Below, one piece after another: positions 3,897 through 60,414 of a stretch of 64,000 bases of DNA; the stretch's first letter is position 1; every line of letters starts with the position of its first letter. Under the pieces are notes generated by a model. It made no database searches and was not told the origin of the DNA. It was given only the letters and a program-made list of their open reading frames with translations. This stretch comes from Clostridia bacterium. Its GTDB lineage: Bacteria; Bacillota; Clostridia; TANB77; UBA1234. The stretch covers positions 30,941-94,940 of the forward strand of contig JAFUGE010000008.1 of assembly GCA_017469545.1 (NCBI GenBank), given 5' to 3'. The position numbers were made by a program, and so were the translations under genes.

Positions 3897-5051
3897 TTGC
3901 AAAACGTAATCATTAATCAAACAAATGACGAGACGTCGGTATACATTTTAGAAAATAATAAGCTGTGTGAAATGTATTGCTACAGAAAGGACATAGAGAG
4001 TACTTTAGGCAATATATACAATGGAAAAGTGACAGATATTGTGAATGGCATGCAGGCGGCGTTTATTAATTTGGGGCTAGAAAGAAATGCCTTTATTTCC
4101 GTGAAAGATGCTTTGAAAAAAGTGGATGTGGCGAAAGAAGAGCAAGATACCAATCTTAAAATGTCGGATGTATTGAAAGTGGGCCAAAATGTGCTAGTTC
4201 AGGTAAAGAAAGAACCGACGGACGGCAAGGGAGCCAGAGTTTCGACACATATTACTTTGCCAGGGAAATATATTGTTTTGATGCCGGGAACGGATATTTT
4301 GACGGTTTCACAAAAAATAGAGGACGAAGCAGAGCGTGAGAGGCTAAAGCAGATTATTAGCCGTGTGTTACCGGGAGAGTTTGGGGCGATTATTAGAACA
4401 GACGCCATAAATGCTAGTGAAGAGGCGCTTACAAGTGATGTAGCTAGTTTATTTGATAGCTGGAATGATATTTTGGAGAAGGCCTCTCAAAGTGACGATG
4501 TTGGCATTTTATATGACGATCACGATATCGTAGAAAGAACGATTAGAGACGCTATTAATCAGAATACACAGAAGGTATATGTAAATAGTGAAGTGGTGTA
4601 CTCAAGAGTATGTAGCGCTTTAGGGGACGAGAGATGTATTTTAGATAAAGACGCTGATTTGGTTTCGAAATTTGGATTAGAGGCGGAGATTGCCAGGGTA
4701 CAAAATCGAAAGGTTTATTTAAATTGTGGTGGACATATTGTGATTGACAAGACCGAGGCGCTGACGGCTATTGATGTGAATTCGGGGAAATATACGGGCT
4801 CTAAGGACTTGGAGAGTACGACTTTGAAAGTGAATTTGGAAGCGGCCACAGAGATAATGAGACAAATCAGGCTGAAGGATATTGGTGGAATTGTGGTTGT
4901 GGATTTTATCGATATGCATACCGAGGAAAATAAGAATAAAATCATTGAATTAATGAGAAAAGAAGCGAAAAAGGACAGAAGCAAGGTGGACGTGAGAGAC
5001 TTTACGCAGCTTAATTTAGTGGAACTTACTAGGAAGAAGATGTATGTGTGA
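3897..5051 (+). CDS. Rne/Rng-family ribonuclease (RNase G-like), C-terminally short
   Basis: S1 domain GNIYNGKVTDIVNGMQAAFINLG; catalytic region TEALTAIDVNSGKYTG and DIGGIVVVDFIDM; TTG start. Confidence 0.6.
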   Translation: MQNVIINQTNDETSVYILENNKLCEMYCYRKDIESTLGNIYNGKVTDIVNGMQAAFINLGLERNAFISVKDALKKVDVAKEEQDTNLKMSDVLKVGQNVLVQVKKEPTDGKGARVSTHITLPGKYIVLMPGTDILTVSQKIEDEAERERLKQIISRVLPGEFGAIIRTDAINASEEALTSDVASLFDSWNDILEKASQSDDVGILYDDHDIVERTIRDAINQNTQKVYVNSEVVYSRVCSALGDERCILDKDADLVSKFGLEAEIARVQNRKVYLNCGGHIVIDKTEALTAIDVNSGKYTGSKDLESTTLKVNLEAATEIMRQIRLKDIGGIVVVDFIDMHTEENKNKIIELMRKEAKKDRSKVDVRDFTQLNLVELTRKKMYV

Positions 5052-6372: not shown

Positions 6373-7701
<1,329 letters not shown>

Positions 7702-7729
7702 TACACCCAAATATTACCTATAATATACT

Positions 7730-7755
7730 GTAGGGGCAGCGTAATACGCTGCCCG
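7730..7755. repeat. REP-like element GTAGGGGCAGCGTAATACGCTGCCCG
   Basis: Family consensus with AAT loop. Confidence 0.8.
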
Positions 7756-7786
7756 CCAAATAACAGCATATCATAGGAGGATTAAG

Positions 7787-8023
7787 ATGGGCAAATATTC
7801 TCATAACGAAAACCTGGCAAGCGAAGAAATGAAAGCAGAACTTCTAGGTGAGCTTGAAAGAGCTATTTTAGATTTGAATGTGGCACTAGAAAATTATAAT
7901 AGTGCCGCACCGGAATTAGTTGATTATTATTCATATCAAATAAAGGCTATGCAAGCAAAGTATGATTATTTGCTAAAACTTACAAAAGATATGAATTTAT
8001 CAAAATTTAAAAAAATTATATAA
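7787..8023 (+). CDS. YaaL-like (DUF2508) small protein
   Basis: 78 aa, size and position immediately upstream of bofA as in Bacillus yaaL-bofA. Confidence 0.4.
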   Translation: MGKYSHNENLASEEMKAELLGELERAILDLNVALENYNSAAPELVDYYSYQIKAMQAKYDYLLKLTKDMNLSKFKKII

Positions 8024-11124: not shown

Positions 11125-11805
11125 ATGAGAAGAGGAAAGAAATATCAAGATAGCGTTAAAATGATTGATAAGACAGCATCTTATGATTCAAAAGCAGCGC
11201 TAGAATTAATCGAAAAAATGCCAAAGGCTAAATTTGACGAAACTGTTGAAGCTCATTTTAGACTAGGTGTTGATTCAAAACACGCTGATCAACAAGTTAG
11301 AGGCGTTATCGTATTACCTCATGGAACAGGTAAGACACAAAGAGTTTTAGTATTTGCAAAGGGAGAGAAGGCTAAAGAGGCTGAGGCTGCCGGTGCAGAT
11401 TTTGTTGGAGCTGAAGATTTAGTTCCAAGAATTGAGAAAGAGAACTGGTTCGATTACGATGTAATCGTAGCTACACCAGATATGATGGGTATCATTGGTA
11501 GATTAGGTAAAGTTTTAGGACCAAAAGGTTTAATGCCTAACCCAAAATCAGGAACAGTTACAATGGATGTTGCCAAAGCTGTTAGCGAGATTAAATCTGG
11601 TAAGATTGAATATCGTTTAGACAAAAACAACATTATCCATTGCCCAATTGGAAAGCTTTCTTTCGGCGCTGAGAAGTTAAATGATAACTTCCAAGCTTTA
11701 TACGAAGCAATCGTTAAAGCAAAACCAGCTGCTGCAAAGGGACAATACATTAAGAGTATGTCTTTATCAAGCACAATGGGCCCTGGCGTTCCAGTAAAAG
11801 CTTAA
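11125..11805 (+). CDS. rplA: 50S ribosomal protein L1
   Basis: MRRGKKYQ..., position after rplK. Confidence 0.9.
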
Positions 11806-12047
11806 TAACCAAAGACAGTAGGTTGCAAATGTTTGCATAAAATATTCCTACCGAGGTAAAGGATCGGATTTTATCCAAGACATTTATTTCGGTGGAATAG
11901 ATGTCTTGGATTTTTTTGTAGGGGCGGTGTAATACGCCGCCCGCGGGTAGCGTACTACGCTACCCCTACAATGAATTTGGGCGCCCGGAGGGTGACCAAC
12001 GGACAGCCTACCACAATGATGGATTATCAATAAGAGGAGGTGTAAAA
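11806..12047 (+). promoter_or_regulatory. rplJ leader region with hairpins and an embedded REP doublet
   Basis: Hairpin CCAAGACAT...ATGTCTTGG (11877-11910) plus REP doublet 11918-11969, in the position of the L10(L12)4 autoregulatory leader. Confidence 0.3.
11918..11969. repeat. inverted doublet of REP-like elements with compensatory stem variants
   Basis: GTAGGGGCGGTGTAATACGCCGCCCG + CGGGTAGCGTACTACGCTACCCCTAC; each stem carries paired compensatory substitutions relative to consensus. Confidence 0.75.
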
Positions 12048-24987: not shown

Positions 24988-25037
24988 AATTGGAGGGACA
25001 GCAAATCATGCTGCCCAAAATTGAAAGGAGAATGAAT

Positions 25038-25203: not shown

Positions 25204-25231
25204 TTGCATTTTTCTGAAAATGTGTTATAAT
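25204..25231 (+). promoter_or_regulatory. candidate promoter for the large ncRNA
   Basis: TTGCAT, 16-bp spacer, TGT-TATAAT extended -10. Confidence 0.4.
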
Positions 25232-25237
25232 AACAAG

Positions 25238-25810
25238 TAGTGGTGTGCTATTCTAGTGATTGCTATGGATTGCGAGGACGGGCCTAAAAATCCGTTGAAA
25301 GGGCATATCGATGAAGTTCTTTAGTTTGGCTCGCGACGCCCAGTCGAGGGTCTCTCTAGGGAGTAAGGTTTAAGGGCGATCTGCAATGGCATGTAGGCGT
25401 TGACCCTTCTACCGTGGAGACACTTCAGTGCGAGCAAAATTTCGCCTGAAGTGATAAACCTGCAAGGCTAATATATTTTGCAAAAAATATTCGTTAGTAC
25501 ACAGTGTAGCTTTCCTTGAGTGAGAATGGCGAATTGCAAATGAAACCATTGTTGCAAAAGAGGATAAACAATCATTTTAGCGATACCGAGGAAATCTCCT
25601 AGAGCATTCTATTAAGAGATGCATTGAGGATTGAAGTGTGGACTAAGTGGTAATCTAGGCTCTTTACCGGCGACGTAAAGATGCTGCCTTTAAAGGGAAA
25701 CCGCTAAGATGGCGATATCTTAGGAGGCAGTAGGGAAATCCTTCTAGACCTAAGCCGCAAAATTTACTTGATGCATTGCCACTACTATTTTTTTAAAATA
25801 ATTGATGGAG
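25238..25810 (+). ncRNA. ole: candidate OLE (ornate large extremophilic) RNA
   Basis: ~575-nt non-coding, stop-rich, GC-enriched structured region immediately upstream of a small 4-TM protein gene, near spoIIIA; assignment by context and size only. Confidence 0.4.
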
Positions 25811-25814
25811 ATTG

Positions 25815-25840
25815 CGGGCAGCGTGGTACGCTGCCCCTAC
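25815..25840. repeat. REP-like element, reverse orientation
   Basis: CGGGCAGCGTGGTACGCTGCCCCTAC. Confidence 0.8.
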
Positions 25841-25875
25841 ACAATATTTTGAATACAGTATGAAAGGTGAGAAAG

Positions 25876-26415
25876 ATGTCAAATAAAACGGAGCAAAATG
25901 TACATAACCATTGGCTAGTAAAAGTGTTTTTTATTACTTTTATTTTGTCATTGATATTTAATTATTTGTCCACGGAAGTGGTGGAGAGTGTTAGTATCGT
26001 TACGTCCATCATTATATTAATTGTTGTAATTTTGATAGGAATTCTATTTGATTTGGTGGCGACTGCCGTTACGGCGGCAGACGAAGCGCCGTTTCATGCA
26101 AAAGCTTCTGATAAAAAGAAAGGGGCAAAGCAATCGGTTAAATTAGTGAAGAATGCAGATAAAGTTTCTAATTTTTGTGCAGACGTTGTCGGAGATATTT
26201 GTGGAATATTAAGTGGAGCGACAAGTGCACTTGTATCAGTAAATTTAAGTAATGCGTTGGGACTTAGTAATATCACGATTGTGACAATGTTAGTGACAGC
26301 AACAGTGACGGCACTAACGGTTTTAGGAAAGGCCTTAGCAAAACACATTGCGATTGATAAGGCAGAAGAAATTATTACGACGCTTGGAAAAGTAATGGCT
26401 GTATTTTCTAAATAA
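25876..26415 (+). CDS. small 4-TM membrane protein, candidate OLE-associated protein OapA
   Basis: 180 aa, predicted 4 TM helices, immediately downstream of the candidate OLE RNA. Confidence 0.4.
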   Translation: MSNKTEQNVHNHWLVKVFFITFILSLIFNYLSTEVVESVSIVTSIIILIVVILIGILFDLVATAVTAADEAPFHAKASDKKKGAKQSVKLVKNADKVSNFCADVVGDICGILSGATSALVSVNLSNALGLSNITIVTMLVTATVTALTVLGKALAKHIAIDKAEEIITTLGKVMAVFSK

Positions 26416-28723: not shown

Positions 28724-28918
28724 ATGGAAGTTCAATTATTGTTTAAGATTGCTGCGATTGGAATTTTGGTAGCCGTGCTGCACCAAGTGCTAGTAAAAGC
28801 AGGGAGAGAAGACCAGGCAATGATGACGACGCTAACAGGATTGGTAATCGTTTTAGCAATGGTAGTAAAGGAAATTAGCAACTTGTTCAACACCGTAAAA
28901 ACACTGTTCAACCTGTAA
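28724..28918 (+). CDS. spoIIIAC: stage III sporulation protein AC
   Basis: 64 aa, two TM helices, MEVQLLFKIAAIGILVAVLHQVL. Confidence 0.8.
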   Translation: MEVQLLFKIAAIGILVAVLHQVLVKAGREDQAMMTTLTGLVIVLAMVVKEISNLFNTVKTLFNL

Positions 28919-29080
28919 ATGATGCAATTTCGGGGTGGCAGAAAAGTGCGCAAGCTGGGAAAAACTGGGAGGATGCGCATTTTCGGCGACGCCGAAAATG
29001 CGCGTTCTGGCAGAAAATGGAAAGATGCGCGTTTTCGGGGTGGCAGAAAATGTAGCATCATTTATGATAGGAGAATGCAT
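28919..29080 (+). repeat. repeat-rich 162-bp insert between spoIIIAC and spoIIIAD
   Basis: GGCAGAAAA(G/T)G three times, GATGCGC(A/G)TTTTCGG twice, perfect palindrome GCGCATTTTCGGCG/CGCCGAAAATGCGC at 28972-29002. Confidence 0.55.
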
Positions 29081-29467
29081 ATGGAGATTGTGCAAATCAT
29101 TGGGATTGCTTTTGTGGCGACATTTATTGTCGTTTTATTAAGGCAGTACAAGCCAGAATATACCATACATATTTCGATTATCGCTGGGATTATTATTTTC
29201 GGATTAGTTGTTTTTAAACTTTCTGCCATAATAGAACTTTTACAAACGTTATCAAACAAACTAGGTGTGAATGCAAAATTCTTTGCAATATTAATAAAGA
29301 TTACAGGCATTGCATATCTGTCTGAATTTGCGGTTAATATTTGCAAAGATTCTGGAGAAAGTGCAATCGCTGCCAAGGTGGAGCTAGGTTCTAAAATTTT
29401 AATTGTTAGTATGTCTATTCCCATTTTAGGGGCACTATTAGATACAATGGCAAGTATTCTACCATAA
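29081..29467 (+). CDS. spoIIIAD: stage III sporulation protein AD
   Basis: MEIVQIIGIAFVATFIVVLLRQYKPEY; the tracked 182-aa ORF N-extension through the repeat insert is spurious. Confidence 0.8.
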   Translation: MEIVQIIGIAFVATFIVVLLRQYKPEYTIHISIIAGIIIFGLVVFKLSAIIELLQTLSNKLGVNAKFFAILIKITGIAYLSEFAVNICKDSGESAIAAKVELGSKILIVSMSIPILGALLDTMASILP

Positions 29468-55795: not shown

Positions 55796-55823
55796 AAATG
55801 ATGTACATAAAAGAGGGGACGAA

Positions 55824-56576
55824 ATGTTAAATCAATTTTCAAGAACAGAATTGTTGATAGGTAAAGAGGCATTAGAGAAACTAAGTAATGCAAAGGTTGC
55901 CGTTGTTGGAATCGGAGGAGTTGGCTCTTATGTAGTGGAGGGCTTGGTCCGCGCTGGAGTAGGAAATTTTGTGTTAGTGGACGACGATAAGGTTTGCCTT
56001 ACGAATTTAAATAGACAGCTAATTGCTACGAGGAAGACGGTTGGAAAGTATAAAGTGGAAATGGCAAAGGAAAGAATTTTAGAGATAAATCCAAAGGCGA
56101 ATGTGGAAACTTTTCAGGAATTTTTCTTGCCGGAGACCGAAGGAATTATTGACGAGAGTGTGGATTACATTGTGGATGCGGTGGATACCGTTACGGCAAA
56201 AATCGAACTTGTGATGAGAGCGAATAAGCTTCATATTCCGATTATTTCTTGTATGGGTACGGGCAACAAATTAGACCCTACCAGATTTGAGGTAACAGAT
56301 ATTTTTAAAACAAGTGTATGTCCACTTGCTAAAGTAATGCGAAAGGAATTAAGGACGAGAGGAATCAAGCATTTAAAAGTGTTGTATTCCAAAGAGGAAC
56401 CGATAAAACCTGACGAGACTTTGGAATGCAGCTGTAAGACGGGCTGTATCTGCCCTCCTGGAACGGTCAGAAAATGTACGCAGAGAAACCAAGTGCCGGG
56501 AAGTATTTCTTTTGTGCCATCCGTTGCCGGATTAATCATTAGTGGCGAAGTAATTAAAGATATTATCAATCTGTAG
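55824..56576 (+). CDS. tcdA: tRNA threonylcarbamoyladenosine dehydratase (TcdA/CsdL, ThiF/MoeB family), copy 1
   Basis: Rossmann VAVVGIGGVGSYVVEGLVRAGVGNFVLVDDDKVCLTNLNRQ; stop codon TAG lies inside GTAG of the following REP. Confidence 0.75.
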   Translation: MLNQFSRTELLIGKEALEKLSNAKVAVVGIGGVGSYVVEGLVRAGVGNFVLVDDDKVCLTNLNRQLIATRKTVGKYKVEMAKERILEINPKANVETFQEFFLPETEGIIDESVDYIVDAVDTVTAKIELVMRANKLHIPIISCMGTGNKLDPTRFEVTDIFKTSVCPLAKVMRKELRTRGIKHLKVLYSKEEPIKPDETLECSCKTGCICPPGTVRKCTQRNQVPGSISFVPSVAGLIISGEVIKDIINL

Positions 56577-59484: not shown

Positions 59485-59661
59485 AAATTTTGGGGGACGG
59501 AGGAAAAATTTAAAAAATAATATAATCGTAAAGTTGTCATTATAAAGGACTAAGCAAGTAGTTGTTGAAAACTGCTTGCTTTTGTGTTATTATTTAGTCA
59601 AATAAATGTGATTTTAATGAAGTTTGTAGTAATTATAAAAATCACGAAGGAGTAAGTAATA

Positions 59662-60414
59662 ATGTTAAATCAGTTTTCAAGAACAGAATTATTAATAGGC
59701 AAAGAAGCCTTAGATAAATTAAGTAATGCAAAAGTAGCTGTTATAGGAATTGGAGGAGTCGGCTCTTATGTGGTTGAAGGGTTGGTAAGAGCGGGAGTTG
59801 GCAATTTCGTTTTAGTTGATGATGATAAAGTTTGTTTGACTAATTTAAATAGACAGCTTATTGCTACAAGAAAAACAGTTGGAAAATATAAAGTTGAAAT
59901 AGCGAAGGAAAGAATTTTAGAAATCAATCCAAAAGCTAATGTAGAAATTTATCAAGAGTTTTTCTTGCCAGAGACACAAGGCATCATTGATGAAAGTGTT
60001 GATTACATAGTGGACTGTGTTGATACAGTTACTGCAAAAATTGATCTTGTGATGAGAGCAGATAAGCTAAACATACCAATTATTTCTTGCATGGGAACAG
60101 GCAATAAACTAGACCCAACAAGATTTGAAGTTACTGATGTTTTTAAGACTAGTGTTTGCCCGCTTGCTAAAGTGATGCGAAAAGAATTAAGAGCAAGAGG
60201 TATCAAACATTTAAAAGTGCTATATTCAAAAGAGGAGCCAATAAAGCCAGATGAAACACTGGAATGTAGTTGCAAAACAGGCTGTATATGCCCACCAGGT
60301 ACGGTAAGAAAATGTACACAGAGAAATCAAGTGCCAGGAAGTATTTCGTTCGTACCTTCTGTTGCTGGATTAATTATTGCTGGCGAAGTTATAAAAGATA
60401 TCATAAAAATGTAG
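59662..60414 (+). CDS. tcdA: tRNA threonylcarbamoyladenosine dehydratase (TcdA/CsdL), copy 2
   Basis: ~95% aa identical to copy 1 but many synonymous nucleotide differences; stop TAG inside following REP. Confidence 0.75.
   Translation: MLNQFSRTELLIGKEALDKLSNAKVAVIGIGGVGSYVVEGLVRAGVGNFVLVDDDKVCLTNLNRQLIATRKTVGKYKVEIAKERILEINPKANVEIYQEFFLPETQGIIDESVDYIVDCVDTVTAKIDLVMRADKLNIPIISCMGTGNKLDPTRFEVTDVFKTSVCPLAKVMRKELRARGIKHLKVLYSKEEPIKPDETLECSCKTGCICPPGTVRKCTQRNQVPGSISFVPSVAGLIIAGEVIKDIIKM

Follow-up and report, generated by a model that had tools for sequence, protein, structure and literature searches.

What is the additional DNA that separates spoIIIAC from spoIIIAD in a spoIIIA operon that is otherwise tightly packed? 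The operon is encoded at ∼27.3–32.3 kb of the window, by which we mean the whole 64 000-nucleotide stretch of Clostridia bacterium DNA analysed here (coordinates refer to this stretch, and genes, open frames, repeat units, segments and spacers are given on its forward strand); the Pfam assignments of AA, AB, AC, AD, AE, AF and AH were taken from identical contigs, and those of AC and AD were confirmed directly. The other gaps within the operon measure −17, 9 and 11 nt, in keeping with the tight packing that the initial annotation regarded as normal for these genes, and the interruption that it reported is real: spoIIIAC (64 amino acids; 28724–28918; Pfam PF06686, E = 2e-18), whose identical protein product occurs in many gut metagenome contigs, terminates with TAA at 28916–28918, the true ATG of spoIIIAD lies at 29081, and 162 nt, at 28919–29080, stand between the two. 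The final 12 nt (29069–29080; AGGAGAATGCAT, with GGAG at 29070–29073) match the 11-nt spacer of related species (GAGAGGTGCAT / AAGGAGTACAT) and represent the native spoIIIAC–spoIIIAD spacer, which has been retained; the extra DNA is, therefore, 28919–29068, i.e. ∼150 nt extending from the stop codon to the native ribosome-binding site.

This inserted DNA is a repeat element composed of ∼2.9 tandem units of 52–53 nt, and its ends are closed by a 10-bp perfect inverted repeat, two features that had been missed previously. There are two types of unit, denoted P and G, and the architecture of the element (28919–29068; head ATGATGCA, tail CATCATTTATGAT) is G-P-G. Unit 1 (G type; 28919–28971) has the core TTTCGGGGTGGCAGAAAA at 28928–28945, unit 2 (P type; 28972–29023) consists of the palindrome GCGCATTTTCGGCG-A-CGCCGAAAATGCGC at 28975–29003 followed by the linker GTTCTGGCAGAAAATGGAAA, and unit 3 (G type, with the tail; 29024–29068) has the core TTTCGGGGTGGCAGAAAA again at 29033–29050. 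The left arm of the inverted repeat (28916–28925; TAAATGATGC) includes the stop codon of spoIIIAC, and the right arm (GCATCATTTA) is at 29055–29064. Besides its two exact occurrences (28928 and 29033), TTTCGGGGTGGCAGAAAA has a palindromic variant at 28981, and none of 100 shuffles of the window reached as many motif matches. Most of what the initial annotation described in the block is indeed present: GATGCGC(A/G)TTTTCGG occurs twice, at 28972 and 29024, and the GC content of 49%, against a window mean of 36%, is ∼3 SD high for 120-nt windows. Two of its descriptions require correction, as the perfect palindrome with 14-bp arms exists, but at 28975–29003 and not at 28972–29002, and GGCAGAAAA is found three times (28937, 29009 and 29042), but the longer form, GGCAGAAAA(G/T)G, fits only two of these, the first reading GGCAGAAAAGT.

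The block is an insertion in the window's species, and is present in none of the relatives examined. The AC–AD spacing at 10 related loci, which have 67–73% DNA identity to the window, is 11–23 nt, and none of them has the block; the gap is 11 nt at five loci with an identical SpoIIIAC, and either 11 nt (GAGAGGTGCAT) or 23 nt in the closest SpoIIIAD relatives (79–81% identity). Moreover, the insertion varies between strains. Five assemblies of the window's species, which are >99.8% identical, carry an identical 162-nt spacer (long-form contigs include ERZ28654170, ERZ27256838, ERZ28655154 and run SRR12529337), whereas in two others, ERZ28653759 and ERZ28019184, the spacer is 57 nt. Alignment of the window with the contigs L030 and L031 reveals that the 57-nt spacer corresponds to the 162 nt minus the exact 105 nt between the 18-bp repeats: this segment (28928–29032) comprises one G+P period, is bounded by two perfect 18-bp direct repeats, and its absence leaves a single-G remnant. 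An 18-bp repeat is too short to have collapsed in scaffolded assemblies or in those with k = 141, and both forms were recovered in at least two independent assemblies. Given that the long form holds sequence that is not derivable from the short form, deletion is the simplest direction, and we infer that the short form was derived from the long one; single-nucleotide polymorphisms do not polarize the two, as L030 has three private changes and there is no informative nesting.

Searches with nhmmer and regular expressions found no second copy in the window or in its 20-kb extension (L161), so that a single copy is seen in the 84 kb read for this species. Copies do, however, exist at other loci. 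A phmmer search of 1.84 billion representative proteins with the frame-0 translation of the block matched P0124 (60% identity, E = 4e-13) and P0126 (E = 3e-7), which are spurious open reading frames called over other copies of the repeat. The contigs concerned (L164, L165, L166 and L167) were assembled from ruminant-gut metagenomes that also gave the long-form spoIIIA contigs, and their copies, in at least six further clusters, share the P and G units, the linkers, the head (ATGATRCA) and the tail. Five clusters are found within 16.8 kb of L165: a P-P-G cluster between mreD and a PBP gene, which begins 5 nt after the stop codon and constitutes a second intercistronic case; a P-G cluster between minC and a PDDEXK_2 gene; another P-G cluster after the latter gene; and two more in the leader of a DUF285/LRR surface-protein gene. 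The G-P-G copy of L164 is collinear with that of the window from ATGAT to TTATGAT, with a mean column identity of 87%, and six P-G dimers align with a mean column identity of 84%. An nhmmer profile of the family recovers 28964–29071 of the window at E = 2e-31 and every full copy at E = 1e-29 to 1e-32, with nothing comparable elsewhere. All of the copies are non-coding and occupy intergenic or intercistronic sites, all seven clusters are co-oriented with their flanking genes (although five of these are on one contig), and the architectures observed are G-P-G, P-G, P-P-G and solo G.

Beyond these contigs, the searches gave no further members. Scans of 185 579 species genomes with exact and degenerate core patterns produced 20 matches, all of them chance matches in coding or high-GC DNA whose similarity ended with the pattern itself; the JGI metagenome scans gave at least 120 matches, which were all pattern-only among the matches listed, and those of viral contigs gave 0, 3 (chance matches) and 0. 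In phage and plasmid collections, blastn found no match to either the block or the canonical dimer, and protein searches with the minus-strand open reading frame and the +1-frame peptide of the block found nothing. Since the exact-pattern scans returned only chance matches, the family looks to be very narrowly distributed.

The contigs that are rich in copies may come from a different organism. The GC content of L165 and L167 is 44–45% (46–47% for the mreC, PBP and minC genes) compared with 36% for the window, and the tetranucleotide correlation of the copy-rich contigs with the window is 0.64–0.73; given this mismatch in composition, the other copies may be part of a co-occurring relative's genome. 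Three observations point the other way. The contigs and the window's species turn up together in three samples, and two diverged copies of the GTAG-REP family of the window (see below) are found on these contigs. In addition, MBQ9266727.1 (IJ217_00310), an open reading frame of the L165 type, and MBQ9267163.1, the spoIIIAD product of the window, have accessions that are 436 apart, and this spacing suggests that an L165-type contig and the spoIIIA contig were placed in one MAG bin.

Of the possibilities raised in the initial annotation, a small inserted element is the one that fits these observations: the block is missing from all of the related spoIIIA loci examined, it varies between strains, and collinear copies with 83–87% identity lie at other loci, which is the opposite of a conserved spacer that is present in all relatives and has no other copies. 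We consider it probable that the block belongs to a modular family of small, non-coding interspersed repeats, of which it is one copy; we term this repeat the P/G element. The family is built from two alternating types of ∼52-nt hairpin unit, in which the P core, GATGCGCATTTTCGGCGACGCCGAAAATGCGCAT, is a long perfect or near-perfect palindrome, the G core is GATGCGCGTTTTCGGGGTGGCAGAAAAGTGAGCAT, and the linkers joining the units have the form YCTGGNAGAAANTGGAAA. It is undescribed, yet it is an ordinary kind of small repeat, like MITEs, BOX elements and BIMEs. The element would have arrived by a transposition-like insertion, having been mobilized in trans by an enzyme that recognizes hairpins, and the short form would have arisen from the long form when the 18-bp repeats slipped or recombined unequally. 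Presumably, the operon tolerates the insertion because spoIIIAD keeps an intact ribosome-binding site and start codon, and because the element folds back upon itself; the resulting basal stem would bring the stop codon of spoIIIAC and the start region of spoIIIAD together. The insertion would not be a dedicated regulatory device, and its consequences for the operon could be neutral, or could amount to a slight shift, where AC meets AD, in how the mRNA is processed, in its stability or in translational coupling.

The strongest challenge to the P/G repeat interpretation comes from the folding of the transcript. An RNA structure was also suggested in the initial annotation, and in so far as a very stable fold is meant, this is supported: the block has a folding energy of −64.9 kcal/mol on the mRNA strand (z = −5.4), compared with −47.9 kcal/mol on the opposite strand, the hairpin of the P unit on its own folds at −24.8 kcal/mol, and unit 3 folds at −10.5 versus −2.9 kcal/mol because of G–U pairs. 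In both the long and short forms, the left arm of the 10-bp inverted repeat participates in a predicted basal stem that holds the spoIIIAC stop codon and pairs this region with the sequence just before the ribosome-binding site of spoIIIAD, extending as far as the AGG of the latter. All of this would suit an adaptive intercistronic RNA device that sets the stoichiometry of the SpoIIIA proteins, either through processing and stabilization of the AA–AC segment, through RNase III cleavage of the ∼26-bp duplex, or through translational coupling of AD to AC. Moreover, there are precedents, as stem-loops between genes determine the stoichiometry of operons in Clostridia (PMC4423207, PMC8219983), and co-transcribed Correia and ERIC elements are cleaved (PMC3049150).

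Nevertheless, we think such a device unlikely. The block is missing from all of the relatives examined, its inner 105 nt are dispensable in two strains, and the same element is present at unrelated loci. The consensus fold of the family is one long hairpin of 29 pairs, in which the right arm of P pairs with the left arm of G, but compensatory changes among family members affect none of these pairs, and several pairs are broken; sequence evolution, therefore, offers no evidence that an RNA structure has been under selection. Searches of Rfam at both gathering and permissive thresholds likewise returned no family, with only microRNA noise for the window block at E ≤ 10 and no match for L165. The idea that the basal stem occludes the ribosome-binding site of spoIIIAD was dropped, as the predicted pairing probabilities depend on context and are not robust. 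The putative effect of the element on the operon is probably neutral or limited to a mild influence on mRNA structure, and, by analogy with the clostridial stem-loops (PMC4423207), any such effect would most plausibly act via mRNA processing, stability or coupling.

A more ambitious version of the P/G repeat interpretation can be formulated, which we hold to be quite unlikely as a whole: that these are undescribed modular hairpin transposable elements of uncultured ruminant-gut Clostridia, which are moved by a non-classical enzyme, a candidate being a PDDEXK_2/Rpn-like protein, and which, where they are co-transcribed, serve as processing or stabilizing modules and so re-tune the stoichiometry in operons like spoIIIA and mreCD-pbp. 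The candidate enzyme is suggested by L165 (6704–8198), where a PDDEXK_2/Rpn-like putative transposase gene (6932–7972) lies between co-oriented P-G dimers that end 132 nt before it and start 134 nt after it; in the upstream dimer, the right end provides a TTGACA hexamer at a distance of 17 nt from TAGAAT. The transposase gene could encode the partner enzyme, or its position could be a coincidence in a repeat-dense region. The same gene and flanking dimers are also seen at 4848–6360 of L167.

The initial annotation further suggested an internal regulatory site or promoter, and this found no support. It is highly improbable that spoIIIAD–AH is regulated from the block, whether through an array of operator sites bound by a dimeric protein or through an internal promoter. 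To its credit are the perfect palindrome with its 14-bp arms, the presence of three related sites that are 52–53 bp apart (approximately five helical turns), and the fact that spoIIIA operons do have an internal promoter at another position (PMC4605598). However, in both B. subtilis and C. difficile, that promoter lies upstream of spoIIIAG (PMC4605598), driving spoIIIAG–AH and not spoIIIAD, and matches resembling sigma-70 promoters are at chance level, the region having 26 where 22 are expected, with only one of these, scoring 9/12, in the block itself. Furthermore, the site is missing in relatives and reduced to a single degenerate unit in some strains, the motif recurs at loci unconnected with sporulation (those of mre/min and surface-protein genes), and there is no second copy near sporulation genes within the window. 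Terminator-like matches are also at chance level, and no −10 motif of the CATACA type was seen in the block on reading the sequence.

Several other signatures were considered for the block and rejected. Two candidate sigma-54 promoters at TGGCA...GC both have a spacing that is wrong by one nucleotide, CodY and Spo0A boxes are a misfit in half-site spacing or sequence (both judged by reading the sequence), and what might be taken for the spacers of a CRISPR-like mini-array are alike, being linkers that are conserved across copies.

As for the coding potential of the block, the initial annotation was right to treat the in-frame 54-codon N-terminal extension of the tracked spoIIIAD open reading frame (28919–29080) as artefactual. 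Nearly all of the best 120 SpoIIIAD homologues have 128 residues and start with MEI(V/I), relatives start with MEI(I/V) at the aligned ATG, and, in the 182-residue open reading frame, the match to PF06686 is confined to the C-terminal 128 residues. Furthermore, there is a GGAG ribosome-binding site 7 nt upstream of the ATG at 29081, and different gene callers assign 182, 173, 164 or 128 residues to the same DNA, their choice of start varying within the stop-poor block. The true coding sequence, 29081–29467, specifies 128 amino acids. The converse, that the block is translated as a basic N-terminal extension of SpoIIIAD (54 residues in the long form and 19 in the short form) following reinitiation at TAAATG, is extremely improbable. 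It would exploit the adjacent stop and start codons and the single frame of AC, the block and AD, which both forms keep (105 nt being 35 codons), but the ATG at 28919 has no ribosome-binding site, whereas that at 29081 has a good one, the homologue lengths are against it, the 105-nt period is set by the repeat and not by codon phase, and the corresponding ‘ORFs’ called across the other copies bear no relation to any gene. Additionally, the block has no stop codons in two of the six frames and at most one in four of the six, so that an open frame means little.

In the window's species, spoIIIAC, the open frame of the block and spoIIIAD share one reading frame (with TAAATG at 28916–28921), whereas spoIIIAC and spoIIIAD are in different frames in related species. 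The shared frame is probably a coincidence; gene callers fuse the block to spoIIIAD because of it, and because an ATG directly follows the stop codon of spoIIIAC.

Lastly, a local origin through duplication or slippage of neighbouring sequence, independent of any dispersed element, might be read into the tandem units and the single copy in 84 kb of genome, but it is most implausible, as the block shows significant similarity neither to its 400-nt flanks nor to the remainder of the window, and the collinear copies at unrelated loci already contradict it.

Among known small repeats, the architecture of the P/G element is closest to that of the BOX elements of Streptococcus pneumoniae, boxA-(boxB)n-boxC; BIME-type REP clusters are also alike. 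In common with BOX, P/G is a small non-coding interspersed repeat of a Firmicute, the number of its tandem internal units varies between loci and strains, it forms a stem-loop with pairing ends, and it resides in operon spacers and gene leaders, where open reading frames are sometimes called across it (PMC3049150). It differs in that hairpins of two kinds, each of ∼52 nt, alternate where BOX has A, B and C modules; its hosts are uncultured gut Clostridia, and the likeness drawn here is one of architecture.

With the REP/BIME class (including REPINs and the associated RAYT, or TnpA-REP, proteins), the P/G element shares GC-rich palindromic units of ∼30–40 nt, extragenic or intercistronic locations, arrays of variable number, and possible effects on mRNA stability and, near a stop codon, on translation termination. 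The REP definition includes a 5′ GTAG/GTGG guide at the foot of the hairpin (PMC6006769), whereas P/G units begin with GATGCGC and have no such tetranucleotide 0–2 nt 5′ of the foot; in the block, GTGG is confined to the loop of G, and GTAG is seen solely at 29052, in the tail. In the P unit, a perfect stem of 13–14 bp carries a minimal loop, where a REP would have a fully paired stem of 7–20 nt and a loop of 2–5 nt, and the G unit has a 5-bp stem with an interrupted extension and a 9-nt loop. In contrast to BIMEs and REPINs, with their inverted units, every cluster has its units repeated in direct orientation throughout, and no tnpA-REP gene was found in the window or L165. An assignment of P/G as a REP of the GTAG-REP/RAYT type was, thus, rejected, on the basis of the missing guide and the direct units; the true GTAG-REP of the window also differs in sequence.

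The Correia (CREE/NEMIS) and ERIC elements resemble P/G in being self-complementary and ∼100–150 nt in length, in lying within operons where they are co-transcribed, and in having both full-length and internally deleted classes. The known families are from Proteobacteria. RNase III or RNase E acts on them, and they occasionally supply promoter hexamers, to which the TTGACA of the L165 copy is comparable, but P/G has neither 26-bp terminal inverted repeats nor a demonstrated TA duplication, and it is GC-rich relative to its host, whereas Correia and ERIC elements are AT-rich.

Derivatives of IS200/IS605 (of the PATE type) offer a further parallel, with two similar subterminal direct hairpins, termini that lack a clear inverted repeat, and copies all on one strand relative to their surroundings (seven of seven clusters for P/G, five of them on one contig), but P/G is without a demonstrable conserved target tetranucleotide, cleavage site or tnpA partner. 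The left flanks end in RAA in five of the seven copies, the boundary of the element being approximate, and the only putative transposase near P/G copies is of the PDDEXK_2/Rpn family. Finally, the intercistronic stem-loops for the selective processing and stabilization of RNA in Clostridia are, like the block, strong, situated directly 3′ of a cistron and found in an operon for a multi-subunit membrane complex (PMC4423207); they are conserved with their genes, whereas the block is a lineage-specific, strain-variable, dispersed repeat.

Measured against the generic definition of a MITE, applied here as in PMC3049150, P/G is a small non-coding dispersed element (150 nt, with at least six further clusters, perhaps in a second organism) and is highly base-paired (z = −5.4; 29 pairs in the consensus hairpin of the dimer), but it is not AT-rich (49% GC in a window of 36% GC). 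The ends of the other copies (ATGATRCA ... GTGAGCAT) match at ∼6 of 8 positions, compared with the perfect 10 bp of the window copy, and they resemble the outer arms of the hairpin units that come first and last. Four of the seven copies have (A)TGAT both at the head and immediately beyond the right end, by which a target-site duplication is only suggested; as the tails are partly shared between copies, the recurring (A)TGAT may be element sequence.

A second family of small repeats is abundant in the window. There are ∼19 GTAG-REP sites in the window, approximately one per 3.4 kb (at 598, 3852, 6328, 7730, 8342, 11918/11945, 13123, 15918/15941, 18018, 22240, 25816, 39858, 45672, 47528, 56573, 57509, 60411 and others), with the consensus GTAGGGGCAGCGTAWYACGCTGCCC(GC), in which a 5′ GTAG is followed by a 9-bp stem and a 4-nt loop. 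They occur in both orientations and are almost all intergenic, with inverted REPIN-like doublets at 11918/11945 and 15918/15941. The first of these doublets (11918–11969) directly abuts a cis-regulatory ribosomal protein L10 leader (11791–11918, forward strand; RF00557, 51.9 bits). Similarly, REP-family copies at 24991–25025 and 25812–25840 flank a full-length OLE RNA (25224–25798, forward strand; Rfam RF01071, 414 bits, E = 3e-118). Downstream of the latter is a membrane-protein open reading frame of 182 amino acids (25867–26415) with a weak CNNM match, and alignment indicates that the intervening spacer has an insertion of ∼68 nt that contains a GTAG-REP and is absent from related species. 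REP families of the GTAG type have been described mostly in Proteobacteria, and so dense a family in a low-GC gut Clostridia MAG may merit separate attention. The lineage accepts small palindromic insertions in general. The family in the window fits the published definition of REPs (PMC6006769).

Two other observations concern neighbouring repeats. Paralogous surface-protein genes share a common upstream region (L164 95–150 and L165 8375–8435), in which an alternating purine–pyrimidine tract (GCGCGTGCGCGCGCGTA) is followed by a near-consensus promoter, TTGATT-17-TATAAT, and P/G arrays occupy the leader between this promoter and the ribosome-binding site. Within the window, a direct repeat of 300 nt with 82% identity (55823–56122 and 59661–59960, 3.8 kb apart) sits among duplicated Flavodoxin_4 and ThiF genes and, therefore, probably reflects paralogous genes.

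The P/G element has practical as well as biological consequences. It makes gene callers lengthen spoIIIAD by 36–54 codons, and small ‘hypothetical proteins’, such as P0124, P0126 and MBQ9266727.1, are called over its copies; recognizing the repeat removes such artefacts. The possible link to a PDDEXK_2 protein is the sole part that could exceed routine interest. For the organism, it is evident that an operon needed for sporulation tolerates a very stable hairpin of 150 nt between two tightly coupled cistrons, and the long and short forms provide a natural allele pair that could serve as a test case for the effects of insertions on operon expression. Overall, the P/G family is an undescribed addition to the poorly catalogued small repeats of gut Clostridia.
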